NCBI GenBank assembly: GCA_040753435.1
Contig: JBFMEN010000052.1
Span: forward strand, 129-64,128
Length of the DNA stretch: 64,000 nucleotides
Direction of reading: 5' to 3'
Source of the DNA: Candidatus Omnitrophota bacterium
Lineage (GTDB): Bacteria; Omnitrophota; Gorgyraeia; Zapsychrales; JANLHA01
The notes under the pieces were generated by a model. The model made no database searches. It was not told where the DNA came from and worked only from the letters and a program-made list of their open reading frames with translations. How positions within the stretch are numbered: the stretch's first letter is position 1; each line of letters opens with the position of its first letter. Of this stretch, positions 1 through 55,048 are shown piece after piece. The translations under genes were made by a program, and so were the position numbers.

Positions 1-3000
1 GCAGCGACAGCAGATCAGGCAATGATCGTCAACGCCCAGGCAGCGCAGGCGATCAAGGTAATGAAACCAACGGTCGTCGAAGCAACGATTGTTGAAGTTG
101 AGCCGACGATAAATAGAACAGCATTAAACGAAGATTTAAGGAAAGTTGAAGCGAATCCTTCGTTAATTGATGGTGCTGATGTTGAGACCCGACTTCCGGT
201 GTTAAGCCAGGCGTTGAAGAACCCGGCGGTAAATGAGGCCGTGATCGAAATAGCCCGGACGGTGGTGGCGGACGTGTTAACGGAGACATCGGAAGACGCA
301 GGCATGAGCGCCGCGCGCTTGAGGACCGTTTCTGATATGGCCGACCGGATCAAGAAAGGACAGCCTGTTCAGAATGTTTGGCGCGGCCGTGCCGTCGAAA
401 CGAAAATGGATGTTGCCCGGCAAACGTTGATCGAAGAGACAGCGGGAGACCAAGGTCTTTATGTTATTCCCGGTAAGGCCTTCTCAATGAAAAACATCGA
501 GACCTGGGTGCGCAATAATCCTGATACCGGAGTTTATATCGCCAATCTCAGTGAAGATCAGCCTTATGTCGAAAAAGTTACGGTGAATACGTCGAGCGGA
601 AATATTGAGCATCAACAGGTGGAAAAAATCAGTTCCGGGATAGTTCTCGTTTTAAGCGGTGCATTGAGTCCGCACAATATGGCCGCCCGAAGTCTTCACA
701 AAATGTACGACGGGTACGGCAAGGTGGTTTTCGATTCCAATTTCTCTATCGGAGATCGACAAACGGTTACGATGCAAGCCAGGCGGTCGCTTGTTATGGT
801 CAAGCCCGGGGATTCTATAGCTGTTCGCCAACTGGCGGTTGTTACAGGGTTAAGTGTTTCCGATATTAAAAAAGAGTTCAAGAAGTTCCAGGAAGATTAC
901 CAGAAAGCAAGGGAAGCCAAAGGCGTCTTGATGGCTGATGAATTGGAGGCGATTATTCCGGACGGATTGGCTGCGTCGATTAAAGATAATCAACAGGCCG
1001 CGGTAGTTTTAGCCGGAATGTCCGGCGTAGATCGGCGAGCATATCAAAAAATTTCATGGGTCGTTCCGGTCAAAGCAGAAAATGATGGATTGATTTTTAT
1101 TCGAAATGTTTATATCGAGACTGCGGCCCTCGACGGCAGCATGATTAAGGATGAAAGTCTCGGGGTTCTCGGGAAGGCGCTGGCCAGCTTAATTGAGCGC
1201 GGAGAAGATTTTGATGTTGTTCATCTCGTTGATCCAAGTACGGTTCAGACTAATGAAGCGATGATCAGAGAGACAGAAGATGGCATCAGGATTCTGGAAC
1301 TGGACCGCAATCTGTTTAATCGCGACGCACGGGGTCTTGTGAGTTATATTTCAGAAGAAATGAAACAGGGGGGTGGTTTCGTTTCGCAGAAAGTCGGCGA
1401 ATTGCTTTCAAGAATTTCGGTGACCCATGAAGAGGTGCATCAACCGGCTGCGGCTTTGATGAGAGACGGCGGAAAGGCTTTGGGTGTTTTGGAAACGCGT
1501 CCGATTTCCGCGGAAGATAACCTTAAACTGGTGAACGCCCAGGCTCAAAGAGCCGGGGAAGTTTTAGCGGGGACATCCGTTCCTCAGCCAGACCCATTCA
1601 TAAGGACAACACCTCCGGCTCTGCAATCACGAGCGGCTTCTGATCAATCTATGCTGCCGAAAATTTCAAAAGAAAACGCCGGGGATGCGGATGTCGTACA
1701 AACGGTAGTAGAAGGGCCTTCTTTCTCTGATGAGGCGATTCTGTCGGCATCAGAACAAAAAACGAAAATGCTTCAGGAGATTGTGACAGCGTTACCGGCA
1801 GAAGCGGCGAAAGAGACGATCGCTCGGACTAATCCGGAAGCTGATCAGCTGGCGATTGAGAGGGAATTGGAGGAGGTCGTTTCGTTAAGATTGCGGGGAG
1901 GACAAGAGTCGCCGGATGTCCCGGAACTGAACAAAGCGTTAAATGATGCGAAGATTCAGCAATCGGTCGCAATGCAATTCCGGAATCAAGTATCCGGAAC
2001 CGCCGAAGAATTGGCGGACAAGATTTCGGCGTCGTTGGAAAATATAGAAGAAGCTTTATCGGGAATCGAGAACGCGCCGGATCAGGAAACAGCGAAACAG
2101 GCGGCCGACAAACTCTGGACAAACGGCAATGCAATTGTGACATCTGTCCGTGGAGTGATGAGTAAATCAGGCGCGATCGGATGGCGGCTTGGTCAAACGT
2201 TGACTCGAGGAGGCGGAGGGATTCTTTCCAAATATGACGTGGCAGCGTCTGCCCAGGTTTTGGCGGGAGCTGGTATGTTTTTGGGTGTGGACCGGAATAA
2301 TGAAAAGAGCCGGACGGATGTCAGGAATGAGATCGCGCGATTGAAGAATACGGTTTCGTTATTAAGAAGCGCAAAGAATGAAGATATTCAGATGGGTTCT
2401 CATAATGGCATTCCGGTCATGTTGTTTGGAGAAGCGCCCTCTGCAAAAGAGATAAAAGTTGAGGTCACGGTTTCACGATCGGCTGACGTGAGTGTTCCTT
2501 CCGAAGAACAGATAAAAATACCTGATGACCAGGCGATACTGACGACGCACAGAGGGCTGCCAGACGGGGCAATGATCACTGGGCCGCAAACACGGGCGGT
2601 TCATGAGATCGTGAGAGCCTTCTTGCAGCCGAAGGCGGCGGAAGAAATAATTGTACGTGCCGGCGCCGGAATTAATCCCGAATCACTTAGAGACGATTTG
2701 GCGAGGGTTGCCTCGTCTGTAACAGTTTCCGGGGATGCAGAGACACCGGCGGCAGATCTTCCCGAATTGAATAAAGCCCTGGAGAGTGAAGATGTGCGGA
2801 AGGCCCTCGCCGTACAATTCAGGGATGACTCGGTCAGGATTGCTGAAGGAATTGCCGCGAACTCGATGAATTTGCTTGAAGAGATCGAGGCCGAATTTGA
2901 CGTGATTGAAAAAAGCGAAGATCTTGTGAGTGCGAAACAAGCTGCCGGGAAGATTTTGGGTTACAGCAAAGATTTAGCCTCGTCGGTTCAAAGTTTATCA

Positions 3001-6000
3001 AATAAACCCGACGGCATTGAGCGCGGGATCGGGAGAACGATTTCAAAAGGAGGGGCTTTTGCGAAACTGGATATCGTCAGTCGCACGCAGAGCCTCATGT
3101 ATGCGGTCGAATTTCTGCAAATGAAGAATTTCAGCGATGACCAGAAAGAAGATGTTCGAAATAAAATTCAAGAGCTGAAGAACACTGTTTCATTGTTGAA
3201 AAATCCGGGGGCGCAAGACATTCATCTCGGGCATTATCAGGGATATCCTGTTGTTGTCTTTGGCGAAATGCCGTTTGATTCGAGGATACGGCACCTGGCT
3301 ACAGTTTCAGTTTCTTCGGAAATTATTATACCGGCTGCAACTCCGACCGCATCATCATTGCGGGATGAGGCAATATTATCATCTGATTTATTAAGGGCAA
3401 CTGCCTGGACCGGGACGAGAAATTTAGGCTTGGGCAAGGCCCTGATGAAAGAAAAAGATTTATTTGGAGGGAACTGGGCGGCTCTGACGACGGGAAGCGG
3501 CTCCGGTATACCGGCGGATTCCGCCATGCTCTCTTTTGATGAGGCTTCGGTCCAATTTAAGGCAGCCAGGGAAAGATTGGGAGAGATCAGGGATACTGTC
3601 AAAAGAATGGACAGCGATTTTCCCAAGTGGCAGGAAGCGCTGAACGGATTGACCGCGAGGGGGCCGGTGACCGATCAATCCAGAAGAAATGCGCAAAACC
3701 TTGACGCAAAAATCAAGGGAGCTATCGGTAAGCGCATCAAGCTCGACTCTGAGGCAAGCGAGAGGCGTGAAGAACTGTTGACTGCGTCAAATGAAATGGT
3801 CAGGAGATATCTGGAAGGAAATGTTCCGGAGACTCGGGAGGCCTATGACTTGACGCGCGAAGCCGCACAGATTCTCGGCGAGCATGCGCCTGACAGCAGA
3901 GAAATTCAAAACAGGATGTCTCTCCTGAAGAAAGAAAAATCAGACCTCCTGGAAAAGAAGCGCTTGTTGATCGAAGAAAAAGTTTCGCTTGATCGCAGCG
4001 AAGTTTCGTCATTGAAGCAGCTTGAGACGGCGCGCAAGCTTGCGGATGCAATTGAAAAGGATATTGAGGACCAGGAAAGAACGGGACGGCCTGTAGATAC
4101 ATTATATGGGCAATGGGAGCTCGCGCTTGAGAAGGTTGATGCCGGGCAAAAAATGATTGATCAGATGCGAGCGGGGAAAGACCGGACGATCGGCGCGATC
4201 AAGGCCGTTGATAAGGAAATAAGGAGCCTGGAATTCAAAGCGAGTGAAGTCGGAGCCGCGCCGACAAAAGAATATTATCAGAGAATGGCGGCGGAGATTA
4301 GAAGTCTTGCGGTAAATACTAAAGATGAAGCCATCCTGGTCCCGGCAGGTGCGTCTGCTGCAGCAAGGGTTCCGGCAGGGCGAATTTCCATGTCCGAAGA
4401 AAAAGCCCTGAATCTTGCCGGAATGAATCCGGTTAGCCTCGCGGCAGAATTTACGGCAACGCCTGTTAATTTGTGGGATGGCGAAGTTATTTCCTATCGT
4501 GAAAAATCAGCAAGACTTGATTCCGATTTACAACGTCAACAAGCTGAAAAATTGGCGGGCGAGTTAAAAACTTCTTTTGGCGAGGCGCCGATTAACATTA
4601 ACGAATATCCCGCGCGGCTGATGTCTCTTGATAGCGGAGAAAGTCAATACCGCGGCATTATCAGCTTTGATGATGTTCTGGCCGATCTTGATGTCAATAA
4701 AGTGAATACGTTTATTGCGCAATTGAAGGGCGCCCCCGTTCAAGGGAAACTGGCGCTGGCAACCGGGGCGACGAGTTTGAGCACGGATGAACATATTGTT
4801 TTCGTTGCCCGGGAATCGAAAGATGTGGAAACAGCGCTAATGATCGCGCACGAAGTATTTAAGCATAATCCTGCCGATTTAACGGCGCCGGTCCGGATGG
4901 AGGTTAGCCAGGATACCCCAGACGGGTCTTATCGGGACTTTTTGGTGAATGAGCTGAAACAGTCGGCGAGGGCCGGAAAAGATTTTGATATCAATGAGGT
5001 GCGCAAAAAATTAACTTCTCTTAATATTGTGCCGCCGATTGATTTTGTTCCCCGCAAGGTTGCGGACGCTGATGCTGCTATGCTCACTCAGATTGACGGG
5101 ACGACCAGGGTGAAATTCGATGAAGAAAGAAAGGTGTTTCCTTTTGTTTCCGGATTGGCCGTTTCCGAAATCCGCGGCAGAAAACCTGATGACATTCAGT
5201 CGATCTGGGAGAAATACTTAAAGGCATTGTCAGAGCTGAGGTTTAAAGAGGCCAAAAACAGTTTGTCGAGTTTGAGGGCTTTGTCCAGATCAAAAAGGCA
5301 GGTTTATCAGGAGATCTTTTCGCCGCAGAATATCCAGCGGGAAATCGAATGGATAGAAAAGCTTGAGCGTGATGAACGGTATTCTGGATCAGTTAATTAT
5401 CTTGTTGAGAAGAGATTGAAGCCTTTTGATCAGGGGGATAGCGATCGCGCCCCTGATATGGCCTTTAATTCAAAAGTATTGAAAAGCAATCTGGATATGG
5501 TTCAAGATTTCTCAAGTGGGGTTAACGAAAAAACCGGACAAACGGTAAAGAATTACTTTTTTGACAAGCTGCGCGGCGATTTTGTCAGTCTCTTGAGAAA
5601 GACAAAAGAAGAAACAGATCAGGACGGCCTTGTTTTGAAGGATTTGGAACCGTATTTTGACGATATGCGGATTACGTCGAGAACCAGGTCTCTGCTGCGT
5701 ATTTACATTGCCTTAAAAGACAAGGATGAATTGATTACTTCGCAAGTTTTGGCGCGAGAATACGGATTTCCTGACGAAGATTTTGAAGGCTTGTCTTTGA
5801 ATGAAAAGAGTGCCAGAAAACTTGAAATTATCGATCAGGAACTGAAGCAGAACCGGCCGATGCTTTCATTTATTCAGGATTTTCACGTCGAAGATGAGGC
5901 CGCTGTCCATCAACGATATAAAGCACAACTTGAAGAATTAGATCGCGAGATTGCGGAGTTGATTATTGAGGAGAATCCGGAAATTAGTCGGTACGATGAT

Positions 6001-9000
6001 TATGTCCGTGCGGTTGCGGATTTTGTTCAGGTAAAGATTCCCGGAATTGTTAAGGTTCGATTAAAAGAGCCGGACATCGGGATGACGCCGAAAGAATTTT
6101 TCAAAATTAAAGAGGCCGGAGACGCTAAAGCAAGTCAGGTTCAGGTTCCTTTGAAATTTAGCGTTACCAGAGACGGGGAAGAAGAACAATGGAATTTGGC
6201 CGTCATTCCCCATAGGAACTGGGTTGATTTAACCCAATTACAGAGAGATATTCAGAGATCGAATATAAGAGGAAAGATTGAGAATTTCCTGAAGCGGAGA
6301 GAACATCCAGAGTTTGCCCAGGCTTATGGGGTAACGATTAAGCGGATTCTTTTTGATCGGCAGACCAGAATGTACGTCAGGATTTTCGAAGAAGAAAAAA
6401 CAATGGTAATTTTTGGATATGGGGCCACAAAAGATTTTAAAAATGGTCATGACCAAATAGATCTCAAGCTGATTGAATATACGAATCAATATCTTGGAGA
6501 TCCGATGTCTCCGAATGGAAGGAGGTCATTGGCAGATCTTGCTGTTGAACCGCTAATGGTTCCAGGCGATCGAGCGATGCTGACGGAAGAGGATTTCAAA
6601 GAAGGATTAGCCGCTGTCGTAAATGAATTCAATAAAAAGACCGGAGCCGTGCCTTATGTGGCTGTTATTTCAGGGAAAGCCTCTTCCGATGAAAAGATTT
6701 ATCAAATGGCCGTGGCCCAGGGGATGCGGCCGGCCGATCAGGTTATAAGCCAGGAGGAATACGTTCAGAATCCTTCAAGGATAACGAATATTGTTGTATT
6801 TAATGAAGCCTTAAGTGCGGTCATTCCGACAGCGAATCAAATTGATTCGATTAGAGAGGCGGCTGCAACAGCCGGAATGTCAAAGATTGCTGTTTCAGTC
6901 GTTTCTCCTGTTGTTTCTTGGGATGCGGTTGAAGGTGTTCGAGAGGTATTCGCAAATGATCTTACCGTAGAGGTTGTTCTTTATACTCCGCAGATTTCGC
7001 AGTCCCCAGCGGCAGAAATTGTTCAACAAAAGCCTGGGTCTCAGCAGGCGGTTATTTTTGAAAACACATTTGATCAGGGATCTTCAGGTGAACGTAAGGA
7101 CCGGAATGGCATAAGGAAAGCCTTGCCAGCGCTGGTGTTTGGAATCACTCTCTTGATTAATTCCGCTTTTATCGGGGTTCCGGCTGGGTCAGTTCATGCC
7201 GGCATGGTTGCGACCTCCGCTCCCAAGGTTGTTCAGCAGATGTCTGAACCTCCGCCGGTTGTTACTCCTGAAATGAGAACTGTTTCTGTCCTGTCCGATC
7301 AGGCAAAGCGCAAGGCCGATGAGATGGCCAGACAAGCGGAAAAAGTTCTGAAAGGTCAGACTGTCGGCGCGTCAGAACAGGCAGCCAGGAAGGCCAGGGC
7401 TGTCATAGAAAGGGCCGAAAAATCAGCACAAATTTCTACTCCGTCTATTATTGAGGAAGACAAGGCTGTTCTTCCTGGTCAAACCACGTTAGATTTTCTG
7501 GGTGAAGAAGATGCTAAACCGGCAACAACTCGTGAAATAATACCTGTCGAACCCATATTGGATGTCCCCGTCTTTAATATAATGGCGCCTTCTTTGAACC
7601 TTCCGATGGCGCCAGTTATGCCGTTAGCTTCTAATAAACAGAGTGATTGGACTCCTTTAACAGGAAGAGATTATAAAGCTATTCCTGTTTCAGCGCAGAA
7701 CCATGTTCCTGAACCTGCTGCAGAGCCTGATGGAGGTTCGGGTGATGGGACCGGTTCAACTAAAGCGGGCAACAAGGCAGGATCAACGCCATTTGTCCAG
7801 TTAGCACGGCAAATGCAGCCATTAACAAAAGATGCCCGGCTGGTTGATGAAAGCAATTTAAAAGAAACACAAGCCGATTTTATTCGAACAGATGGTGATA
7901 AAGCAAACAGAACTCGTTTTAATTCTTCTGGTACGAGTCCGACGATTTCTGTCTCTGTCGCCCTTTCCACAAAGGGTCAGACAGATGGAGCAGTAGAGTG
8001 GAACAGACTTGAAGAATCAAATGTTGTAACAGCAGTAGAAGGTGTTGTTTTTGAAAATGTGGCTAACTTGTTAAGTAGCAAAGCTTTAGTTAGAGCGGCG
8101 CTTAGCGAGGGAGAAGCAGGTGCGCAGACTGTATCTTTCGAGATGAAACTTGCGCAAGCAGTAGATACAGAAGCAGAAGTAGAAGTAATAGTAGCAAAAG
8201 GACAAAATGAGGTTGTTGGTGGAGCTTATGGTAGCGTAAGAACGGGTACGAAGCTTAATGGGGAAGAAACAGCAGCGTTGGCTGTGCGCTTTGGCGCAGA
8301 AAACACGCAAGTAGTAGAAACACATGTAGTAGAAGTGCCTGTTGAGACGGTTGTAAGAAGTAATCGTGGTAGAAGTAGTCGTTCTTTAGAGAATCCGAGC
8401 GTTGTAGCTATGATCCGGTCTTCAGATATATTGGAGGCAGGGGAGCTCATTGCGGAGGTTCTGATCAGTACAGTCAGTGCAGTTGTTGATGTTGTTAAAG
8501 GCGGCGTATTAGGTTCTAGAAGTGTACCCTCTAGCGATAGAGAGAATACATCTAGAGAACAAGCGTTACCTGTGGTTCTTATCGTGTGGAACTTGGCTGG
8601 CAATAAAGGATCCAAGGGTAAGAATCGAAAAGTAGTACGAGATGCTGCGATGATTGCTCAAGTGAAAGCTTGGGTTAAACATGCGGCAAAATATGCTGAG
8701 ACGGTTGTAAGAAGTATCGGTAGAAGTACTCGCTCTGCTGGAAACAAACGAGAAACAAGAAGTGCTCCTGCTGAATCTGATAGCAGTGATGCTGATGACG
8801 ATGCGGAAGGTTCTCGAAGTTTGGATTCCAATAAAGATGAAAGTGAAACAGTAAGTGGCAGAAAAGCATTGAGATCTGCCAAAGCTAATGTTCCTGAAGT
8901 TTATGCTGAAAAGCAAGAATTTAGGAATGTAACTGTTGAGAATAAATATAGAGAAGATACGAAGGAAGCTGAAGTAAAGGCTTCTGATAATCCTGAGTTG

Positions 9001-12000
9001 CGAAAAGAAAGAAAAGCAGCCCAGGATAAATCTCTACCACAAGTACCGGTTGTGAACATAACCAGAAGGATATCCGAGTCGAAAGATAAGGATATGAAGT
9101 TCTGGAAGTTTGTACGTGAAGCAATCGGTCAAGCCACAAAAGCATCTCAAGAGATCCTCAGAAGGATACGCGGTGCTTGGTTTGCGTTTGTAATCGAGAA
9201 AATCAAGTACAGTATCTCTATTCGTGCGTCCAATTCAGTAGAAAATAACATTAACCATAATATTCAAAAGAGCCCGATTGAAGGCGTCTTTGGCATTGCT
9301 AAAGCTGTCTTTAATCGGGCTTCTTGGTTTGTTGCTTCTAAACAACAAGCCGAAAACAAAGGAGGCGCAAAATGGTTATCGTCAATACTCGAAGGGCTGA
9401 AGACATTGAATTCAAGTATTTCCTTGAAATTCCACGCAGCAATTGCACGTTCTGCTCTTGCAGAGACAGGGGTACAGGCCGAAGCAAGCTATACCTTATC
9501 TTTACCACAGGTAACTTCAGGGTTTATGAAAGAAACGGGCTCAAAGGAACCTGGGAACGTGTTACTGAAGATGAGCAAAGACGAATCCATGCTTTCTTCA
9601 CCCAGGCAGCCTGCAGCAGACAAGTCCCTCATTTCAGCAACAACCGTTTCCAGGAAATCCTTAACCTCAACTAACGGTGAAGATGAGGAAAAAACGTCTT
9701 CATCAGAGCAATCCGAAAAAGCTCAAGATTCAGCCTCTGTTTCCAGAAAAGTCTTAACAGGCATATTCCTTGCCGTTGTCGCATTATCAGGCGCATTAAT
9801 GGCTATAGGAATGGGTACGGCTGAATTCTGGGCGATTTTCGCGATTGCTCTGATCAGCGGCGGCTTTATAGCCAGTCGAATTTTCAATGATATTAAAAAA
9901 TTCGAAGCCGAAAAACGAAGGCCTTCTGATAAAGATAAACAGAAGGAATTAAAGTCTAAATATGGACCAGTGTTCCAGGCCGTTAAGATTGAGGCTGCTT
10001 TGTCAGAAGCCGTTGCCCGGTTACATGCGGCGGCTGCTTTGGTTGATAAAGAGGAAGCAATCAATCTGCGCAAGCAGGCAAAGCTGATCGAAGACGGGCA
10101 ATACGAATCAGTGATTGATGAGCACGCTTCTTCAGAGGAAATCGTCAGCCTTCTTTTGACCATAGCCCTAAGGAAGGCAGGATTAAGCAAAGTTGATCAG
10201 ATGGTCCGCGATCTTATGCGGATTCAGGTAGAAGTTTCTGATGTTTTAGGGAAATACAGCCAAACATCAGTTAGCGGACAGGTACGGGAATATGTTCAAC
10301 ATGAATTTGGGTATGCGGTATCCGATGATATGTTGAGCAAGGCCAGATCCAGAGCCCGGAAAGTTTATGAATTGTTCCAGGGCCGTCTGCAGAAAACAGA
10401 AAAGCTTCTTAAGATCCTTCAGACTTTGGAGCAGCAGAGACAGGGAATTGAAGACAGGCAGAAAGCGTTTAATGCAAAGCATCCGAAACCCGTTTCCCGC
10501 GAGCTTAAACAGATCAAAAAGGAATACCAGAAGAGAGCCGTTGCGATTAATCGCAAAATCAACGCTGTTTCTAAAGATATTGAGTATTTGCGGCTGAACA
10601 CCCTGTTCGGTTCTTATTTAAGAATAATAATTACGGAAGTTGTCCGTGAAGCCCGTTTGCAGGCATTACGCGATCATGGAGAACAAGCTAACAGGCTTTT
10701 CGCTGCCAGGACCAGACTTGAGAAGCTTGAGAAAAAGACAGCCGGAAAGACAGGAAAAGCCAGGGCCGCTGTAGATGCCGAGATCATTGTCCTGAAAAAC
10801 GAGATTCGTATTCTGCAAAACGCGATCGATTCATTTGATGCCGAAACAGAAACGATGGCCGGGAAGGCCAGGAAGGATATCGCTAATGAATTCGGTCCTG
10901 TTGAAATGCCCGCGTCGGTTGAAACTCCTGTTCAAATGCTGGCCAAAGCCGCGGGGACCAGGGCTGAGAGGACTTATCTGCGGGGATTATGGTCCGAAAT
11001 TTCCGGCGAGACGATTGTTCCTGAAGAAGAAATCGAGGATGCCGGGGCAAAAGACTTTTTAAGCTGGAAGTTCCTCGCCCGGGTGTTCTCATTCGGATTA
11101 TTATTGAGCCTGGCCGCGCTTGCTGTCTTCCCGTCGGATGCCCAGGGACAGGATAACGATTCAGACGCGGATGAAAACAAAGCCGCCGATCCCTCTATCA
11201 GCAAAGTTGCAAAATCGTCCGCTTACGCAATGGCAGTTTCCATGATGCAACCGGATACTTCCGCCGATGAAAAATCACATTCCCGTTACGGGGAACCGCA
11301 AAAGCGCGGAGCCGAATCAGCCGGGAATCCCGGGCTTCAGGCCGGCAGCGCAATCCATTCTTACCGGGTCGTTGACGCTGTTTACCTTGATTTCGAGAAG
11401 GACGGCAAGAGCCTGAATATCGTTCAATCGAACGGCGAAGCGATGCCGGATATGATGACAGCTTATTTAGGAGAAGGAAACGAGGCGGATCAATTAGTTA
11501 TCGTTACTTCTGATGGAACGAATTTTGCGATCAATATCGAAAATATCTTGAGCGCGCGGGAGAAAGGCGAATTGTTCGTCTCGGTCCGCGACTCTGCTTC
11601 GCAGATTGCCACTATGCCCGTGGCTGCGCTTGCCGACGTACTGTCCGCCCTGGACGGCAGGACCGGAGCCGAAGCCGGAATGGTCTTTATTATCAACAAA
11701 AATTTGAAACAGGACGGCACACCTTTTGAAAAGACCTTGTTGAATTTACTCAGAGCGGTTGCCGGGAAAGAAGACAAACCTTTGATGAAGACAAGGTTTA
11801 CTTACTTCCCCGGGTTCAACGTTTCCCGTTTTGATCACGGCCGTGATTTCTCGGGCGACGTCAAATGCAGGCGCTTTGATGTGTCCGGGATGCTGGCTGA
11901 AATGGCCGGGGATGAATACCGTGTTAAATCCGGAATCAGCGGAAAAGTTGTTAATGTCGAGCGGAAAAAAGACGGGGTTGAGGTAACGGTCGCGGGAGAT

Positions 12001-30000: not shown

Positions 30001-33000
30001 ACCGGGGTCGTTGCCGCGGGCCTCTTGAGCCTCAGTGCTTTCGCCGCCTGGTTCGCGTTCAAGACTCCGTTGAGAACATTCAGCCCGTTGAGTTTTGCCA
30101 AAGCGCTTTTCTCCAAATTTGCCTTCATCTATGAACAGGGAGTCCTCAAGATTCGCGTTCAGACTTCCGGCAAAGTCGACCTGGCCGCCGATGAAGCCGA
30201 GCGCAATAAAGTGGACAACTCCATAGTATCTACAGCAACGCCTTCCATTAACAAACAAACGCCTGTCGGATCGGTCGTTCATACGTCCGCTTCGTCCAGA
30301 AAAGAGTTGGCCTTAAGGGTCTGGCGCGATTACTTTGAAGGAAAGGTCGAGCAGGATCCGTCCATGATGTCCGAAGTTATCGAGCTTCTTAACGCCCAGC
30401 CGGAAGTCCGCGACTCCGCTATGATGGCCGGACCTGACAGTGAATACAGCGAGTTCTGGAGAAATGTAGCACGAAAAGCGAAAGGCGAAGAGCGAACGGC
30501 GAAGAGCGAAACGCGAAAAGATGATTCAATATCGGCCGCCGCACCTGATGATGAAGAGATCAAAGGGGAAACGATTCCGGCTGCCACCAACACCGCCATT
30601 AACACAAACACTGACACAATCACTGACACTAACACTATTCCCTCCGACGCCGCGATGATTTCCGCGATTGAAGAAAATGCAGCCGCGCTCACCGCCCAGC
30701 CGAGGGTCATTATCGTTGCGGGCGTCTCCACCGCAGTCAAGAGCAGATGCATCAACAGTCTTCTTAAGGAATTTCAGGATCGGTTTATTTCGCCTCTCCC
30801 GGTCCGCGATCAATCCATGCTTTCGAAATTAAATTCTGTTGAGGCCGTGAGACCAGTCACTGCAGCGAACACTTCCGTGGCTGGAAACTCCAAAGGGACC
30901 GGGTCCGCGGCCTCGCCGATGATTACGGGAACGGACAAAGTTGAAATCAGCGTCGAGGCAAAGATTCTGCACAGGGCCGGTCAACTGCTCGCCGGACGGC
31001 CCGCGGCGCCGGATATTGATGAACTTGTTCGTTTGTTAATGAACGATCCGGTTGTCCTGAGTCTGGCCGGATCAATGGAAGCGGCCCGCCAGATCCTTGC
31101 CGCGATGAAGGAACCGTTGAGAAAGGTTCCGGAAAATAAAACCCGAAAGGTGGAACCTGTCGAGCGGACCGATGCGGAAAGATCTTTTGATTCTGCCCGC
31201 CGCGACCAAGCCATGGTCTCGCAGGTCGCGACCGGAATTGATAAAAATAATATTGTTCAATCGGACATAACGGAGGAAAGTCCATGGAAACATTCAATGA
31301 AATTCAGGTCCGAAGCGTCTTTGATGGAAGCGAGGGACGATTTGTGGCCGCCAGTTACGATGGATGGACCTACGAGTACAGGTTCTTTATTCATCAGAAC
31401 GGCGAGATCAAAGGAAGGACGTCCGGTGATTCCTGGGTCGACATCAGCTCAAACACGGCCGGGATCATCAGATCAAAGGTGGACCGGTATCTCGGATTTA
31501 ACCCGGAAGAACAGGACGCCTGAAACATTATTCACGCGGCTTTTGAAAATAAAGTCCCGGAGTGATGAGGCGGTGTTAAGTGATTTCAGGAGCTGGAGGA
31601 TCGAAGGGTTCAGACAGGCTCCCGGATACAAGATCCAAGAAACCGGCGGCGATGCAGCGATACTCGCGGACGGAAAAGAAAGAAAAGAGGGATTGTTTGA
31701 TCTGCGAGATCGCCTGGTAAGGGAATTGGGCGAGGTTTCAACTCTTCTGGAAAGGGTCCCTCCGGCCGTCAGCATTTTCGGCGGAAACAATAGCGGGGAA
31801 AAACTTTACCTGTTAAGTTCAATCCTGGGATTTAATTTGGCCCGGCGAGGGTTCACTCTTCGGACGGGAGGCGGACCTGGAGTTATGGAAGGTCCTCTTC
31901 TGGGCGCCATCCAGGCAAGAGGAGCCTCTCTCCCGGTTAAAATAAGACTTTCTGTCGCAAGAACGCTGCTGCCGTTCCTGAAGTACGTCCCGCCGTCTGT
32001 TTCTCAACGAATTCTGTCGGGGCAAAACCAGGGATTCAAGATATACATTCCCGACCAGCCGCTGAGTCCGCATGTCGAGATTCCAGCGCATTTCACGCAT
32101 TTTATTCCGAGAAAGATTTCGTTAATGCGTGCGGTTAAAGCGATCGTTGTTTTGTCCGGTGGTTTTGGGACATTAGACGAGCTTTTTGAGTCCATGCGGA
32201 CCGACGGGCATATCGTAGCCCTTCCCTTCTGGAAACCCGTTATTAAGCAGATTGAAAAAGCCTGGGCGAACCGCGGCTGGGGAGAGACGATATCAGAAGA
32301 GATTTCCTTCAGCGAGGACCCGGAAAAGAACGACGCCGGCGAGATCTCTGCTAACATTGTTGATCTGATTGGACAAATGGACTACGAATTCAATCAAAAG
32401 AATATGGAGCTTCCGTCCGATTTGAATTCATTAAAAGCGATGATCCGTGAAGCGCACCGGGCGCTGACCAGCTTGGCATCTTTCGAGAAGGGGATTGTTG
32501 TCGCGGGGAGTTCGAACCCTGCACATATTCATGAGATTGTAATTGCCCGGAAGCTTGGAGCGTGGGCGGCTAGAAACCAGATGCCGCTGCGCTTCGGCGG
32601 GACAGGCCCGGTCACAAAGGCCGCGATTGAGGGGATGGGAAGCTGGTATGGCCGGATTCAAGCCGTCCTCATAGATGAAGATACGGGCTGCTGCAGGGAT
32701 AAAGATGTTCTAAGGCAACTATATTGGAACGGTAAAGTTATTAAAACTATTGACCGGATCATCCATAAACTCTTGTTGAAGGAAAACGTCCTGGGTCATG
32801 TGATTTTCCCCGGGACGTGGGGAACCGTGGATCTTTTGACCGATATCATGGATGTGCGGCATATTCATTATTTCTCGAACAAGAGGGTCTGGCCCCAAAC
32901 GCCGCTGATTCTGGTTGGGAGAAGGTTCTGGAATCCGATCATGGAAACCGTTTTTCAAACTCTCGAGTCCTATTTCTCGCCGGGAGGCCGCGAGATTGTA

Positions 33001-36000
33001 CAGATTGTCGACACCAGCGATGAATTACTTGCGAGACTAAATATTCTTTCTCGGGGATCGAAGGTCTTTGCTCAAACGGCAGATCTCGCTGACGAAACGG
33101 CCGGGAGAGTTCGGCAGAACATCCGCGGCGATGCAGCGATACTCGCGGACGATAAAAATTCCCGGAACACAAACGGGCCTGGATCATTTGTTCATGAAAA
33201 ACAGATGGTATGGGAATATGGAAATTCTGAAATCATGACTTCCCGCGCTCGCCGTGCCCGGAGCTTCATCGGGGAAAACCTGCAGAGAATATTGAACAAT
33301 GGATTTTATCCGCGCCCGGCGAAGGTGGTCAATCTGGGATCCGGGTTGGGAGAGTTTTCGGCTTCGCTGGCGGAGCTTGTTCCGGTCAGGATGTTTGATG
33401 TCGACATAACAAACTTTGCCGGGAGACATAACAAGTCTGTTCCCTTTGTCCAGGCGGATGAAAGACCGTCAAACAGCACGGATTTTGATAAAGATGACGA
33501 CACGCTTGTCATTCTGAAAAGATCGGCGCGGGAATGGGCGCTGAAACAGAGAACGGGATCTCTGGTTCTGCGCGGAAAGGTCCTGCCCTATGCCTATGGA
33601 ATTGTTCTCCAAAAGCCGTTGACTCAAGAGAACCGATCGTCGGATCCTGCCATCGCCGGTAGTGAGAGGCAAGCCGGAACAGACGCGGGCCTTTCAGATC
33701 TTGAACAGAACGCGAAAGACCGGGCGATGTTGACGAAGGGAGAAGAGAACGGAAAAGACGCGGCGACCGGATCCGTTAAAGGGCAGCGGACCGCAGGTAA
33801 CGACAGAAAGAAGATTGCGCTGGCGCTGAAGCTTATCGAGAACCCGGATATCAATATCATTGCAAGGCTTTTTGATGATCCTGATGAGGAGGTCCGCATC
33901 CTTGCGTCGATTGCGGGGGCCCGCTTTGTTGTTCAAAACCTGCAGGAGCTGATTGCTCATCATCTGCGCAATCCATTAACCGGTATGGGAGGTTTTATCA
34001 ACAGGATAGGAAACAAGGTCTCCCGTCCGGCAGAAACAACCGGTCCTGAGGCGATTGATCCTGACGCGGATATTCAAAGAGCCGCCAGCAAAACCAGGAT
34101 TGCCGGCAAGACGGCAGAGATTATCGGTGCCATGACCGATATCGAAAAAGATTTAAACGAAATCTGCCTCTATCAGGAAGAACAGGATGAATCGGCGCTG
34201 GATGCGTCGGTTATTTTCCTGTCGGGAGCGCTCAATGTCCTTTCGGAAAAATTCATCGCCATGGAGGGTATGCTGCGTGAGTTAAACGCGCAGGTCCTGG
34301 AATTAACGGCTCAAACCGCGCCAGCTTATATTAAGGAGAACGAGTCGATCACGAGGGCGATGGAAACGATAAACAGGGAACGCGGCCGGATCAAAGAAAT
34401 ATTCGATTCGTTGAGAGCGATGTCGGAATACAAGGATTTGGATTTTACGGAAACCAGCGTCGCGGATGTGGAGGAAGAAATCTCCGGCCTTGAAACGGAC
34501 GGCGTCAGGGAAGGGGCTCCCCTGGCCAAAAGGATTCTTTATGTCGATCCCAGGATCAGGACAGGAGAAAAACGAGTGATGGCGCCGAGAGCGCTTAAGG
34601 AGATATTGCTCCACTTCTTTAAAAATGCCGCGGAAGCAAACGCGTCAAATATCGGCCTTGCCTTCCGCGAGGAAGGGCGGCGGCTTATTGTTGAAGTTCT
34701 GGATGACGGCTCGGGCATCTCTGAGGCCGACGCACAAAGGCTCTTTTTGCCGTTGTATTCGCGGCTTTACACCAGGTCTCTTTTCCTGAGCAGACTTCAG
34801 TCTTCATTAAAAGCGATGGAAGGTAATTTGTCCGTTGATATTGCCGGCGCGGATCTTATTAGAAAATATTTTAGTGAAGCCTGGCCGCAGCCCGGTATTC
34901 ATGCGGCGATTGCCAGGGCGGCAAGGGGCAGGGAGGAAGCCCAGGACATCCTCCGCGTTCTGGTTTTGCGCGAACTTAATTACGATCAGCTTGTTGATCT
35001 CCTTGAAGGGAAAGTCAAAAACGTCGCGGACGTCGCCGAAAAAATTATCCAGAAGAGAGTATCCGTCAGATATGGAAGGAAGACAGGCAGGGAGATCCTC
35101 GGGGAATTTACGAGAAGCATTCCCGATCTTTCCGATTTTGAAATTCTGGCGCTCCTGGAAGAATCGGCGCAGTGGATGCTTCCGTCCCAGGCATTCCGGG
35201 CGATGTTGGCCTTCGGGCTTCGCGAGCTTAAAGAAGCAGAGATCTTCACGGCGCTTTCCGTTCCTCAAATCAGGGAAAAGATTATAAACAGCGGCGGGAC
35301 CGTTGATGCAGTTGTCGGGAAAATCCAGGAGTTGAGGCAAGGCGTCGCCGGTTACCATACCCGCTTCATTCTTGAGTTTCCTTTGATTTTCGACGATCCG
35401 GAACTCGTCGTCAATCTTTATGAGATGTCGAAAAATATCAACTCGTTCCATAGCGTGACGCAGAGACTCTTCGCGGGAGGGGCCGCGGAAGATATCAAGC
35501 CCGGGGAAATCAGGGATGTTCTCGAGGACATCACGCTCTTTGTCGGAGAGAGATTTGATTTCGGCCTTCGGTATTACAGCGACGCTTCGCTCAAAGGCAG
35601 CGCTGTTTATGATGAGGTTGTTTCCCATTTATCCGCGTTGCAGGATCGGCTGGAAGACTATCGCCGCGGGATTCTCAAAGGCCGGCAGCAGCCTGTTTAT
35701 GAGCAGATGAAACTGCTCGAAGATTTGCTGTTAAGGACACTTTCATTCGGGAAAAGGGCGCTGGGATGGCATTACGGCAACTCCATGAATTCTATGACAC
35801 CGTTTAAGGACATTGAACGAAGCGTCTCTTTTGCCAAAGAGCTGCTAGGATTTTCCGGCATCGATACCGGCAGTCTGAAGATCAATCTTGAGTTCGAGGA
35901 AGGGGAGCTTCCATATATTCCTGTTTTCTCATATCCCGACATCATCATGACGATTATTGAAGAGCTTTTATCGGGAGGAGTGAAGCGTGGAAGCGCGACG

Positions 36001-39000
36001 GAGATAAACATCAGGGTCGGAATGAAAAAGAACATTCTGACCGTAGAGTTCTCGGATAACCGCAAGAAGGTTTCTTATATTGATCCGAAATGCATGTTTT
36101 TGCAGAGATCCATGGGGCGCGGGCGAGGGACGGGCTTTGGTATTTTTGCCCTTCGACGGATCGTTGAGGGCGTGCTCGGAACCATGAGCATCGAAAACAG
36201 GGGCGTGACGACCAAGTTTATCGTCAGTCTTCCGGTAAGCGCGCAGCCGGCCGTTCTCGGGCTGCCGTTGTCGAAACAGTCGGGCACTTACATGTTAAGC
36301 GGCGAAGATGCCCCGGTCAAGAAGGCGCTGGCCCGATACCTGTCCGGAGCGCTCGGTTTAAGGTATATCAACGCACGCTTCCTTGAAGAGGCGGTCATTT
36401 ATGTTCTGATCGAAGAATTGCTTTTGCCGGAAATAAAGAAGGCCGGAATCAGCATGGATAATGAAAACGCGATTGATGCGTTTATTACAGAGAAAATCAA
36501 CGAGATCGAAGATTTTGTCTCCGCTTATTTGAGAGAAGACGGTGTCGACTATAGCAGGGAACCGTTAAGGATCAAAATTCATGGAGAATACCGAAATAGT
36601 GAGGGGTTGTATCTGTCCGGAGTGTTGAAAGACGTCATTAAGGAATCTTACCGGCAGGATTCCGGAAGGAAAGTCATATTTGAAAGGGTCGTTCGAATGC
36701 CGTTCTTTAAGACATTGCTGGAAACATTTATGGTTGACGGGGGCGGGAAGATCCTTGAAAACGGAGGATTTAACGGGATCATTCTGCTCAACGGTGCGGT
36801 CATCGGAAACGGAGATCTTTTGGCCAAAAAAGAAAGCGGGGCGATCCGGTTACGCGTTGACGGTGAAAAGAAGAAAGGAACAGTCTCAAGGAAATTGACG
36901 GTCTGGGACGGGAATGAAACCGGAGTCTTTGCAGAAATTGATTTGAACGCGAAGAACAGAGAAAAGATCGCGGAGGCTGTTATTCATGCCCGGCAAAAAA
37001 TGGACGGGGCCATGCTGACGGGATTGCAGGAGAAGAGAGATGCGCAACCGGACAAGTCGACGGCGGCAATTTCTTCCGGTATTTCCGGTTCGCTTAAAGA
37101 TCAGGTGATTTTGGCTAATGGCGACAGGGCCATGATTGCCGAAGGTAACGATCCGGTATTTTCGCAGATTTTGACACCTTTTGAAAAAGAGAATGATGTC
37201 ATCGTTCCAAATGTTAAAACAGGACCTGCAATCAAGCTGATTTATCAAGTGGATCATATGACTATTTCCGGGATCGTAGGGTTGTCCGAAACCAGAGAGA
37301 CTACCGGAGATTTCTTGCTCATGTCCGGGACCACGGCGGTGCGTGAAACCAGGAAGCTTGCCAGAGATTCCTTCATGCCTTTTAATCGCAAGCTGGATCT
37401 CTGGACATATGCCCCTATCGGTCTCAACCCCGTTGGCAGATACAGGAACCGGGGCATCAGTGAGACATTTTTAGCCTGGCTGTCGTTGTTGGCGTTGAGA
37501 CAAGGCTTTGATGAAATTTCCTGCCGCACCAGAGGGGTTCATAACGCCTACGTCTTCCGGAAATTCTTTGCAGATAAAGTTGTCTTTCCGTCGGGTAAAA
37601 TAATTGACATGAAGTTTTTCCCCTATGCCCTGACCAAGGCTGATAACTCCCTGCTATGGAATAAAGATGCGTTTGAGTTTTTCGGTCGACCCAGGATACC
37701 TGCGAATGTTCATATGGCATGGGCTGATTACGCGATGATTGGTTCACAAAGAACAAATTTACCGTCGACCGATTTCCGAAAGTTCCTTCTTTCCCCCGCC
37801 ATCGAGACGCCTGTGCCGGATCAGGCTACGGTGAAAAACTTATCAGACAGCGAGCCGCGATCGGAATCCTCTTCCCGGGATAATGCTGTTCTTGGCGATG
37901 CAGAAGATGATACTGAGCCGAAATATTCTTTTGGCATCACAACCAGAGGCCCGGGAGTGAGACTGGCGGTCCCGGGCGCGCCTTATAACAGGACGGAAAA
38001 ACTTGCGGATTCGGCGATGGTTACGGAAAACACGAAGCCTTTTGTAAATGATTATGTTAATGAGGAAGGGATCCGCGACGATATTGATCGGGTTATATCT
38101 GCCCTGGACGGCCTTCTGCTCAGGGATTTCTGTTCGGACTGCATGAGGAAAAAGATGCTCGCCCTGCTTGATTATCGTGGTCCCGGGGCGAATCTCGTGC
38201 GTAAGGCCGTACGGCAGGCCGTGTATTCAGCAGCCGCGTCTCTGCAAAACGGGAAACAAACAAAGGCGTCGAAAATACTCGGGATTTCAGGCGAGATATC
38301 AGGTCTTTATGAGGTCGTTATCAAGCGCGGGACGACACTGGAAGGGATTTATTTAGGGGAACTCTCGGATGTGAACGGAATCATCCGGGTGGGCGGCGTG
38401 GCGGTCAAAGAATTCGACGCGATCAGCAATAATACGGTCTTTGAATTTAAGTTCCACCTGACCCTCAGAAAACTGTACCAGCAGGTTTTCGGAATCGATT
38501 CCGCCGGCGCGTCTCATTTAAAGATTATCCGCAAGGCCGGACGGTTCCATAACATCAGAAACATTGTTTATTTCGGCGAAGTGGACTACGGGTTTGTGTC
38601 CAGGGCGATCCATGCGTTCCTGGTGAACAGGCGTCATCTCTTGCCGCGCGTTAACATTGTGAACAAGGGGTTGTCGGTAAAGTTTTCGTTAAACGAAATT
38701 AATGACTTTTTAACGAGCGAAGACGTCCTGAAACTGGTTAATGAAGAATCACGGGCCCAGGGAGCCCGCCATTATCTCGGCGACGTGATCCGGGAAAGAA
38801 AGAATATTATTACAAGGGGGATTCGAAGATTTCAGAAGGAGTTGCCGGCGTCAGCGAAGTTCGATGTAATCATCGCGATGAGTAATGCGCCGAAAGATGT
38901 TTTGAAAGATATTTCGAAACTGAAGCAAAAAACGAAGAGGCGCGATCATGCCATGTTAGTCAGGGCGACCGGCGGCGATGGATTCATGAAAACTTTTGCG

Positions 39001-41643: not shown

Positions 41644-41649
41644 TTTTGA

Positions 41650-41890
41650 TGATTGGTCCGGGGGGGGGGTATGTTTATGGTGGTGAAAAAATTTAATGTA
41701 GAGACGTCTTGGCGGGATGTCTCCAGGCAAGAGGGTAATGGCGTCGTCGATGCAGAGATGACCCGGCGGGTCATCTCAAACGGCAATGAGTCGGTTCTTC
41801 CGACGGAGACGTCTCATCGGGACGGGGCACAGGAGATTGCTGGAAGGGAGACGTTGGGCAGGAGGAGTCTGAAACGGAACTTCAGTTGAT
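41650..41890. repeat. Palindrome-rich intergenic repeat element, copy 1, containing a G10 homopolymer at 41660-41669
   Basis: gatgattggtccgggg...gagacgtct/agacgtctc inverted repeats...atgacccggcgggtcatctcaaacggcaatgagtcggttcttccgacggagacgtctcatcgggacggggcac.ggagattgctggaagggagacg. The same string (about 90% identical) recurs at 55812-56050. Confidence 0.85.
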
Positions 41891-41976
41891 GGGTTATGGC
41901 GTATAGCCAGGAAGAAGATCTTGATGGTGTTACTGAGTGGATTAGAAAAAAACAATATTAAAGACTGGAGGAAAAA

Positions 41977-42039
41977 ATGATTAAGAAGCCGAATTTGAAA
42001 GGGCATGGCAAGGTTGAATCTTTATTAACATTATTTTAA
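41977..42039 (+). CDS. Small ORF (20 aa, MIKKPNLKGHGKVESLLTLF) with a strong RBS in the AT-rich leader of the paralog operon. It may be a leader peptide or spurious
   Basis: ggagg sits 8 nt upstream of ATG at 41977. The ORF lies in the 600-nt intergenic/promoter region before 42238. Confidence 0.2.
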   Translation: MIKKPNLKGHGKVESLLTLF

Positions 42040-42237
42040 CTAAATTTGTTATAAACATATGATTTTATTATATTTATATATTTTATTAAATTTGCCAATT
42101 TGTTCTATATCTTTTATACTTATATCAGAGAAAAAAAGAAATCTCCCGCTCTATTTCTTTCAATTCAAATCTGATTTTTATATATTTTGCGACTTGGGAA
42201 AGTTTATTTCTTACTATAAGAAGACGAGGAGAAACTA

Positions 42238-47196: not shown

Positions 47197-47286
47197 TTCA
47201 ATCTTTACTGGTATAGGGTAAAAAAGCGTTTTTAATTTAAATGATTCATTAAGAACACCAAAAACATTTTAGGGAGAATCTGTCTT

Positions 47287-49881: not shown

Positions 49882-49886
49882 ACACT

Positions 49887-54493: not shown

Positions 54494-55048
54494 ATGAAAA
54501 ATGGGTTCACATTATTAGAGCTGGTTATTGTCGTCATCATTATCGGGGTATTGGCCTCGCTGGCCTTGCCGCGGATGGTTTCAATGATTGAGGGATCGCG
54601 TTCTGCGGAGGCGATTTCAGCGCTGACGTCAATTCGCAGCGCGTTGGAGCGGTATTACCTGATGCATCCGGGTGAGGAGGTCTTTGCATCTTCAGACCAG
54701 ACGGAGACTTTTGAAATGCTGGGACTGGATGATCCCGGATCTTCACCCGGGTCGAATTTTGGTTACCTGGCAAGTATTAGTATGATAGGCGGTGAAGCGT
54801 CTTTTTTTTCTGCGGCAGTGCGTAATTATAACAATAATGGCAGTCCTTATAGTGGGGCACTTTTATTGGAAAATATTAATTTTATTTATTTGGGAGTCAA
54901 TGAGACAATGATCGCCTTGTGCGGGTTTGGAAATTTCAGATCGGTTAGCAGCAAAGATTATTGTGATGTTCCGGAGAATTTGGTGGGACTCGGGTTTGGA
55001 ACCGTCTCAACGATCACTGCGCTCGGATATCTTGCCACGAATATGTAG
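54494..55048 (+). CDS. Type IV pilin / pseudopilin-like protein (prepilin-type N-terminal cleavage/methylation domain)
   Basis: N-terminus MKNGFTLLELVIVVIIIGVLASLALP. It has the G|FTLLE class III signal with Glu+5 and a hydrophobic alpha1 helix. The C-terminal Cys pair (LCGFG...DYCDV) is typical of the pilin D-region. Confidence 0.85.
   Translation: MKNGFTLLELVIVVIIIGVLASLALPRMVSMIEGSRSAEAISALTSIRSALERYYLMHPGEEVFASSDQTETFEMLGLDDPGSSPGSNFGYLASISMIGGEASFFSAAVRNYNNNGSPYSGALLLENINFIYLGVNETMIALCGFGNFRSVSSKDYCDVPENLVGLGFGTVSTITALGYLATNM

Follow-up and report, generated by a model that had tools for sequence, protein, structure and literature searches.

The Omnitrophota are a phylum of ultra-small predators and episymbionts. 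Giant genes are well documented among them: open reading frames (ORFs) of more than 20 kb are found in 77 of 116 Velamenicoccia and 20 of 23 Omnitrophia genomes (Seymour et al. 2023, PMC10066038), proteins of up to 85,804 amino acids (aa) have been predicted (West-Roberts et al. 2023, bioRxiv 10.1101/2023.11.21.568195), and a recent survey counted 5,761 proteins of at least 10 thousand amino acids (kaa), the longest having 147,155 aa (Nielsen & Lui 2026, bioRxiv 10.64898/2026.06.07.730766). The 'Archaeovorin' or multi-enzyme class is typified by a 39,678-aa protein of Velamenicoccus archaeovorus (West-Roberts et al. 2023; Nielsen & Lui 2026), and pilin and type II secretion system-like genes have been reported near giant genes (West-Roberts et al. 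2023). The literature mostly takes these giants to be whole proteins anchored in the membrane, and for the V. archaeovorus giant, peptides from across its span were detected. Groups working on them have proposed cleavage, yet state that the cleavage points are unknown; Nielsen & Lui (2026) mention no cleavage, motifs, junctions or linkers, and no junction or cleavage motif is described in the published class papers that we searched. That glycolytic enzymes within giants are predicted to be extracellular is a further puzzle. Here we describe a giant ORF in a 64,000-nucleotide (nt) stretch of contig JBFMEN010000052.1 (the window), together with a short peptide motif that lies between its modules and recurs in a family of secreted proteins, three of which are encoded directly downstream.

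By size (an ORF above 20 kb, or at least 10 kaa) and by host, the ORF falls among the Omnitrophota giant genes, and it is a further member of a documented phenomenon, at the small end of the size range. A sequence-only reading, made before any database search, had named Omnitrophota among a few lineages with such genes; the lineage proved right (from the identity of the MutS protein in the window), while the implied rarity did not hold, as ORFs above 20 kb are present in most surveyed Omnitrophota genomes. The ORF shares with the published giants its phylum, a length above 40 kb, multiple transmembrane (TM) helices, few annotated domains and a nearly unique sequence. SLT, glycoside hydrolase, HATPase_c and Lysine_decarbox/LOG domains are common to it and to the published domain lists, and both the role proposed for the class, attack on prey cell walls, and the post-translational cleavage proposed for it are relevant here. 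Of the content that recurs in Archaeovorin-type giants (GT, methyltransferase, GH, peptidase, NUDIX and HEAT), the ORF shows a methyltransferase with weak support; it has glycoside hydrolase, SLT and LytM-like domains, together with HATPase and LOG. The SecA_DEAD/preprotein-binding domain of most full-length giants had no match in the available 13.9 kaa and may lie upstream; C39, S8, HEAT, GT5, GT1 and NUDIX domains were not detected in the same stretch. Other traits of the published giants, a C39 or S8 peptidase at the N-terminus close to a signal peptide and a T2SS-like locus upstream, concern a part of the gene and its surroundings that falls outside the window. No dockerin or TSP3 repeats (PF00404 or PF18884) matched the giant, which is therefore not of the dockerin type.

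1 to 41643, plus strand: giant ORF, 5'-truncated, 13,880 sense codons, stop codon at 41641-41643.

Frame 0 contains no stop codon from nt 1 until 41641-41643 and is about eight times as long as the next-longest open frame in the window (1,658 codons). At the random-codon stop probability of this base composition (0.0545), a stop-free run of 13,880 codons has a log10 P of about -338. With a codon-usage model trained on the window's genes for MutS, MutL, eda, the HMGL aldolase and a response regulator (63081-63446), frame 0 was the top coding frame in 27 of 27 consecutive 1.5-kb segments, while the other two frames contained 15 to 61 stops per segment. The claim made from the bare letters, that this is a single uninterrupted ORF of at least 41.6 kb and a real giant gene, is thus borne out. 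There is a very low probability that the long frame is artefactual: an in-frame chimeric metagenome assembly of unrelated fragments, or an unexpressed, decaying pseudogene. The source is indeed a short-contig metagenome-assembled genome (MAG), GC content and GC at third codon positions (GC3) are uneven along the gene (0.43-0.53, with GC3 of 0.28 at nt 7501-9000), and the protein has almost no homologs. A chimera or a pseudogene, however, would keep neither 41.6 kb free of stops nor the same frame best in every segment, and one peptide motif recurs in frame at both ends of the gene and in neighbouring genes. The window contains no N bases, and long exact repeats that could seed a misjoin are absent, the only DNA repeats being local duplications, at 28.4-30.5 kb and 39.3-41.3 kb, that have diverged to 87% identity or less. 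In addition, collinearity links the central core to other large Omnitrophota proteins. Judged by sequence rather than by reads, there is no sign of a collapsed or chimeric assembly, and an assembly artefact is effectively excluded.

The frame is still open at the 5' edge of the window. Its first ATG, at nt 22, would give a protein of 13,873 aa; that Met belongs to DQAMI (aa 5-9), a copy of the recurrent internal junction motif, so it is not the start codon and the gene runs on upstream, in agreement with the expectation that the protein is longer than seen. The source contig has 74,257 nt, which leaves at most 10,257 nt (~3,400 codons) that can lie upstream of the window. The ORF is probably locus AB1650_06505, as inferred from the tag numbering of its neighbours, and its sequence is already in GenBank. 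MutS of the window matches NCBI MEW5895398.1 ('MAG: Candidatus Omnitrophota bacterium') at 100% identity, and four further window proteins are identical to MEW5895390-93 (locus tags AB1650_0651x). Named organisms among the top 120 MutS relatives are nearly all Omnitrophota or Omnitrophica, with one partial match labelled Bathyarchaeia. As the flank of the giant encodes MutS, MutL, KDPG aldolase (eda), an HMGL-like aldolase, a pilin-like protein and a response regulator, the window is bacterial chromosome. These data confirm that the giant gene is real, truncated at its 5' end, and belongs to an uncultured member of the Omnitrophota.

The two ends of the giant are built as arrays of modules separated by one motif:

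13 to 8655 (aa 5-2885), plus strand: N-terminal array of motif-delimited modules, ten junction sites, no Pfam matches.
aa 587-834 and 863-1112, plus strand: duplicated ~270-aa module in the N-terminal array, bounded by junction sites.
28843 to 41640 (aa 9615-13880), plus strand: C-terminal array, seventeen junction sites.
aa 12991-13784, plus strand: ~210-aa unit repeated four times in the C-terminal array.

The motif has six residues, D-x-A-[M/I]-[L/I/V]-[T/S/A/G], and at 28 of 30 sites the residue following its first five is one of T, S, A and G. A DQAM(I) junction had already been noticed by eye, and it is statistically very strong: D-x-A-M-[ILV] occurs 21 times in the giant against 0.41 expected, and 27 times against 1.4 when Ile is allowed in place of Met. 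In an unbiased k-mer scan, D.AML was the most over-represented pattern of the giant (11 versus 0.15, p = 1.6e-17). There are 1.5 junction sites per 1000 aa. Those of the N-terminal array are at aa 5, 577, 843, 855, 1122, 1173, 1442, 1691, 2190 and 2881; all sites of the giant fall within aa 1-2900 or 9600-13600, leaving the central 6.7 kaa free of them, and none lies inside a Pfam envelope. The segments that they delimit correspond one-to-one with domain types (2H, LOG x2, methyltransferase-like, double histidine kinase, unknowns). The arrays thus hold lineage-specific modules whose recognisable types are those of cytoplasmic enzymes, alongside some 15 modules of no assigned type. The ~270-aa duplicated pair is bordered by the sites at aa 577, 843/855 and 1122, and each of the four ~210-aa units starts with DQAML or a degenerate copy of it.

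At the conserved positions of the motif, synonymous codons match overall gene usage: GAT and GAC are used 20:11, all four GCN codons occur, and Leu codons are mixed. Free synonymous variation at D, A and L places selection on the peptide rather than on the DNA, which rules out a nucleotide-level signal or a relic ribosome-binding site. The same data bear on a further possibility, that the giant is a single-frame operon in which translation starts internally at the Met of each D-x-A-M, yielding separate proteins with no cleavage. An ATG does stand at the Met position in 25 of the 31 window sites (27 in the giant, 4 in the paralogs), and the gene caller's start at nt 22 is itself a motif Met. 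Yet there are no stops between modules, six sites have Ile instead (ATA, ATT or ATC), and the flanking D, A, aliphatic and small residues are kept as amino acids while their codons vary. A Shine-Dalgarno-like signal precedes 4 of 20 motif ATGs, no different from 33 of 302 other in-frame ATGs, and other genomes carry S-S-P-[IV] or D-x-A-V-L, with no Met, at equivalent positions. Internal starts are very improbable, and effectively ruled out by the lack of a Shine-Dalgarno excess, the Ile variants and these Met-free forms.

The motif has the same form in the genes directly downstream of the giant, which belong to a family of secreted proteins:

42238 to 53036, plus strand: three tandem paralogs (1652, 864 and 1049 aa; MEW5895390-92), each with signal peptide, N-domain, cargo and C-module.

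In these paralogs a Sec-type signal peptide is followed by an N-domain of ~330 aa, a linker with a D-x-A-M-L site, a variable cargo, a second D-x-A-M-L site with linker, and a C-module of ~70 aa. The N-domain is recognised by the signatures WVNLSPYE..., KVWIVPE... and ...YFSGG and the C-module by 'GGIDLNP...PVIINITPI..LLG'; neither has a relative in Pfam, NCBIfam or the PDB. The cargo of the 1652-aa paralog is CofD, and a GDP-galactose-phosphorylase-like domain is also among the paralog cargo. A fourth paralog, an ORF of 1938 aa, occupies the syntenic position on a related contig. In the 594 nt that separate the stop of the giant from the first paralog (41644-42237), no terminator-like hairpin was found on the plus strand. 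A promoter-like TTGCCA-17-TATACT occurs there at 42092-42120, which is weak as a signal given that the region has 4 promoter-like sites against 1.6 +/- 1.2 in shuffles. An Rfam scan of the window returned no matches.

A profile of the N-domain recovered no fewer than 1,410 proteins, and the genome loci confirmed for it number at least 580; essentially all are from Omnitrophota, with several copies per genome. (Many third-party MAGs titled 'uncultured Planctomycetales bacterium', including L006, L007, L010, L012, L017 and L023, carry the family at 50-59% identity; these bins are probably mislabelled taxonomically.) Among complete ORFs that start with the N-domain, 51 of 57 finish with the C-module, with a median length of 1,637 aa and a maximum of 3,717 aa; nine further family ORFs exceed the 10-kb flank and are still open after more than 3,650 aa. 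Cargo across the family includes HAD, methyltransferase, phosphoglycerate kinase (PGK), phosphoglucose isomerase (PGI), protein kinase, M48 peptidase and ankyrin domains. The motif sits in the linker behind the N-domain and 5-35 aa ahead of the C-module. Two forms are enriched, D-x-A-M-[LIV]-[small] (35 observed versus 1.6 expected) and S-S-P-[IVL] (36 versus 1.9), while in a control set of 120 Omnitrophota MutS proteins the D-x-A-M form occurred 4 times against 2.2 expected and the S-S-P form not at all against 1.7. Their density was 0.59 + 0.35 per 1000 aa in 104 family ORFs and 0.008 + 0.041 in 212 neighbouring non-family ORFs, none of which (0/212) had two or more sites.

The number of sites rises with the length of the family protein, up to 10 in 3.7 kaa, and the longest chains show where they fall. 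At locus L052 (9177-20276, plus strand), an N-domain is followed by a complete acyl-CoA dehydrogenase (ACAD), pyruvate-phosphate dikinase (PPDK) and phosphoglucomutase (PGM), and the chain continues, still open after more than 3,700 aa, with 10 sites. These lie only between enzymes, which they bracket tightly; the sites around PGM stand 17 aa ahead of its Pfam envelope and 13 aa beyond it. At L056 (10001-21151, plus strand), a complete protein of 3,717 aa carries aldo-keto reductase, PfkB and HATPase domains, 7 sites and the C-module. In both chains, enzymes of cytoplasmic type stand behind a Sec signal peptide. In the 864-aa paralog (47287-49881) the two sites lie at aa ~394-399 and ~776-781. 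An AlphaFold model of this protein (66-sequence alignment) gave predicted local distance difference test (pLDDT) scores of 80-97 for the N-domain and 85-93 for part of the C-module, and placed both motif sites in segments of pLDDT below 50 between these confident parts, with no predicted docking of the motif segments.

To compare genomes, we surveyed loci L004-L083 and family proteins P0130-P0249. Genomes with at least four sites kept to a single dialect in 13 of 15 cases. Inspection revealed a third form, D-x-A-V-L-[small], in three genomes. D-x-A-M-[LIV] is used by SMAG_U7936, OFTM38 and the genome studied here, in which the giant's dialect is identical to that of its downstream neighbours; D-x-A-V-L by CA_2019_TPBF_141, HKST-UBA13 and HK-STAS-OMNI-4; and S-S-P-[IVL] by USDV_maxbin.135, ERP119705_co25_244 and SRP128015_co1_466. 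Dialect did not follow N-domain similarity (nearest-neighbour concordance 31 of 53, against 0.55 by chance). That paralogs of different subfamilies share one motif within a genome fits a genome-specific, trans-acting reader, and the independence from N-domain subfamily, together with the lack of predicted docking, argues against the N-domain reading the motif in cis. Collectively, the junction signal is under selection at the peptide level, lies between domains, is specific to a protein family and comes in genome-specific dialects.

What would such a signal do? Sites stand at every boundary, bracket the cargo, hug complete enzymes at their termini and separate tandem units, and this layout argues for a processing site. 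In the mechanism that we propose, each genome would have its own trans-acting factor, most likely an endopeptidase, to read the motif; the giant would be cut into a membrane-anchored lytic core and some 25 released modules, and these modules would serve the cell's attack at or in its target as effectors or accessory enzymes. For cleavage itself at the motif, we would put the chances slightly under even. The broader proposal is tentative, and marginally more so: that D-x-A-[M/V/I]-[L/I/V]-[small] and S-S-P-[I/V/L] form a processing code by which a putative genome-specific endopeptidase turns ORFs of 1 to more than 14 kaa into separate, exported enzymes and effectors that act at or in prey or host. 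Neither the junction code nor the secreted cargo family is described in the literature that we searched, and both are new in this respect.

The principal alternative is that the giant is one uncut, membrane-anchored multi-enzyme scaffold or 'coat', with D-x-A-M-[LIV] and S-S-P-[IV] as uncleaved linker motifs that dock to a partner, chaperone or secretion component, carry glycosylation or phosphorylation (the SSP form), or mark the boundaries of independently folding parts. We consider this unlikely but far from negligible. It agrees with the literature's treatment of giants as mostly intact and with the V. archaeovorus peptides; no protease has been identified; predicted disordered linkers suit any short linear motif, and a genome-specific dialect would fit any co-evolving binding partner, not a protease alone. 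However, docking leaves unexplained why there is one copy per boundary and none in the 6.7-kaa core, and the way in which the motif brackets cargo at both ends between N-domain and C-module, hugs complete enzymes and separates tandem copies is the layout of polyprotein processing or of sorting-domain removal.

Several results weigh against processing, or against extending it from the family to the giant. Cleavage is deduced from sequence layout. In the part of the giant within the window, no C39, S8 or C80 protease matched and the LytM domain looks inactive; for the family N-domain, no relative by fold was found, and none of its His, Cys or Ser residues is invariant; and when the neighbourhoods of 84 loci were searched for the reader, no gene family recurred beside family genes. 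Roughly half of the family ORFs have neither the D-x-A-M nor the S-S-P dialect, and pooled k-mer enrichment in members lacking both gave nothing beyond residual N-domain sequence. Among large proteins that share the giant's core, only the SSP dialect was enriched, in only 4 of 81, and P0001, the closest large relative, had neither. The giant's own membership of the family is unproven: an N-domain hidden Markov model (HMM) found no match in aa 1-13880, the true N-terminus being upstream of the window, and the C-module HMM found none in the giant. (A degenerate C-module picked out by eye at aa ~13790-13835, 'EGIDLKEP...FIPVSTTP', is ruled out by that HMM result.) No giant module was found as cargo in family proteins. 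Finally, some 7 of the 27 giant sites lie in internally duplicated units and are not independent, leaving about 20 independent contexts, and by a crude hydropathy scan the site at aa 2881 may face the opposite side of the membrane from the others.

Between its two arrays, and within the C-terminal one, the giant carries the following features:

7123 to 11127 (aa 2375-2393, 3251-3292 (two) and 3691-3709), plus strand: TM candidates from a Kyte-Doolittle scan.
11893 to 12168 (aa 3965-4056), plus strand: LytM/M23-like domain, 28.1 bits against a gathering score of 28.7; 3uz0_B, E 9e-4.
18784 to 19176 (aa ~6262-6392), plus strand: weak NlpC/P60-like cysteine peptidase signature, E 0.052, below threshold; D-C-S-G-W-V ... 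D-H-I-A-V-V.
19309 to 19725 (aa 6437-6575), plus strand: SLT-type lytic transglycosylase; 9udh_A, E 7e-34; 9k2v_E, E 3e-11; Pfam SLT, 36-37 bits.
20320 to 21195 (aa ~6774-7065), plus strand: GH-A clan TIM barrel (GH2_C/GH158-like), also in other large Omnitrophota proteins.
22621 to 28020 (aa ~7541-9340), plus strand: conserved membrane core, collinear with P0001 (Ca. Orphnella occulta) and many proteins of 1-8 kaa.
aa 8885-9340, plus strand: multi-TM module in the membrane core, weak Glucan_synthase match (PF02364, E 0.007).
aa 9803-9935, plus strand: 2H phosphoesterase, Pfam 2_5_RNA_ligase2, 26 bits, just under the 27-bit cut-off.
aa 10589-11012, plus strand: LOG/SLOG x2; 5zi9, E 3e-13.
aa ~11084-11150, plus strand: methyltransferase-like, weak.
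aa 11318-12079, plus strand: HisKA and two HATPase_c domains (double histidine kinase), Pfam HATPase_c, 58 bits.

The 'dozens of recognisable domain motifs' claimed at first sight were an overstatement: about 10 domains are detectable by Pfam or PDB comparison, and most of the protein is unmatched. With the four TM candidates listed above, others at aa 8146-64, 8452-84 (two), 9151-9304 (four), 9496-9514 and 10002-20 bring the number to ~13; all are hydrophobic 19-mers with a Kyte-Doolittle score of at least 1.6, from a crude scan that does not set topology. The candidate at aa 3691-3709 resembles a signal anchor and directly precedes the lytic region, and all cell-wall enzyme domains fall within the 4.4-kaa TM-free, motif-free stretch of aa 3710-8145. 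The SLT domain has the E-S catalytic motif and the GLIQF motif; one of its PDB matches, 9k2v_E, is a phage internal protein. The LytM/M23-like domain shows no HxxxD/HxH motif by inspection and its best PDB match is SpoIIQ, a degenerate LytM domain; on sequence it is probably non-catalytic, with a binding or regulatory rather than a peptidase role.

Given the cell-wall substrates of the lytic set, this region must act outside the cytoplasm, and we infer that it is extracytoplasmic and acts on the wall or envelope of prey or host, in agreement with the published model. Taken together, the data make it moderately probable that the giant is a membrane-anchored, multi-module protein of predation or episymbiosis, with junction motifs that would serve as processing sites.

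Conservation of the giant is concentrated in its centre. A profile of the multi-TM module (aa 8900-9330) found 137 representative proteins, mostly of 1-8 kaa and 25 of them below 1e-30, and by BLAST aa ~6770-7080 and ~7540-9340 are collinear with many of these proteins. The flanking arrays have no homologs elsewhere except for a weak match of the 2H module to P0001, and the C-terminal 5,000 aa has one significant homolog among 5.8 billion proteins, a 4,371-aa protein of Ca. Orphnella occulta (Omnitrophota). An AlphaFold2 model of the multi-TM module (2-sequence alignment) reached a pLDDT of 31.5 and was not used. Other large proteins that share the membrane core have strongly over-represented short motifs of their own, which may be signatures of repeat domains or additional junction dialects: P0256 has eight copies of 'QTSS.RK', P0341 seven each of 'LGGW' and 'LFD.LG', P0281 six of 'G.GHP' and P0306 six of 'DN.GR'.

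Three regions of the giant stand out individually. At nt 7501-9000 (aa ~2500-3000), GC3 drops to 0.28 (0.42-0.61 elsewhere) and codon usage scores negatively, with frame 0 nonetheless the best; the sequence is of low complexity and charged, and this module may be of foreign or recent origin. At aa 12670-12981 (nt 38008-38943, plus strand), a 312-aa module between junction sites has a PD-(D/E)xK-nuclease-like signature by eye (EFDAIS...VFEFKF) and no Pfam match. On the minus strand, a 446-codon stop-free frame runs antisense to the giant at 17284-18624, with several others of 160-270 codons elsewhere; these are probably a by-product of codon bias on the sense strand.

The PilZ genes that follow the majority of giants are absent downstream of this one, where we found instead the three N-domain-family paralogs, the HMGL-like aldolase, a pilin-like gene, eda, mutL and mutS. 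The pilin-like gene (54494-55048, plus strand) lies between the two aldolase genes and encodes a prepilin-type N-terminal methylation motif (PF07963).

On its own, the giant ORF is one more, rather small, example of a phenomenon catalogued thousands of times. The lack of known cleavage points has, however, blocked structure prediction by parts and the functional interpretation of giants, and a boundary motif that can be read from sequence and has genome-specific dialects makes the question of cleavage directly testable. If the processing reading is correct, giant genes would be bacterial polyproteins, and the junction code would allow them to be split in silico into functional units. The Sec-signal family, with its cargo of cytoplasmic type (PGK, PGI, PGM, PPDK, ACAD, CofD and kinases), also bears on the puzzle of glycolytic enzymes predicted to be extracellular, and suggests that the export of enzymes toward a host may be a general strategy of Omnitrophota.

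Known systems offer three points of comparison. T9SS C-terminal domains and autotransporter passengers are examples of removable sorting domains, and PEXEL and RxLR of host-targeting motifs. The downstream paralogs resemble such cargo systems in having a signal peptide, conserved ends, variable cargo and a motif at the boundary, so that sorting modules could, by analogy, be removed there. They differ in that N-domain and C-module have no database match and in that the motif here occurs many times per protein; to our knowledge, Omnitrophota are not known for a T9SS.

In the MARTX toxins of Vibrio, unrelated effector modules lie between conserved terminal regions of a very large polypeptide and are released by proteolysis, at unstructured linkers that contain a short recognition site with an aliphatic P1 (Leu) and a small P1' residue. 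The ...M-[L/I/V]-[T/S/A/G] of the giant resembles these sites, as an analogy rather than a sign of membership. Neither Peptidase_C80 (the cysteine protease domain), nor RTX/glycine-rich repeats, nor a type I secretion context was detected in the giant; the family proteins have Sec signal peptides, the giant has many TM segments and a cell-wall-lytic core, and cleavage of it is here deduced.

Viral polyproteins, such as those cut by picornavirus 3C and potyvirus NIa, are concatenated proteins in which a short conserved peptide, with a lineage-specific consensus, is read by a dedicated protease. The giant differs from them in being a cellular, chromosomal gene near mutS, mutL and eda, with a large site-free centre and no protease module found. 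In its organization it may nonetheless be compared to them, as it likewise concatenates independent modules with a short, lineage-specific peptide between them.

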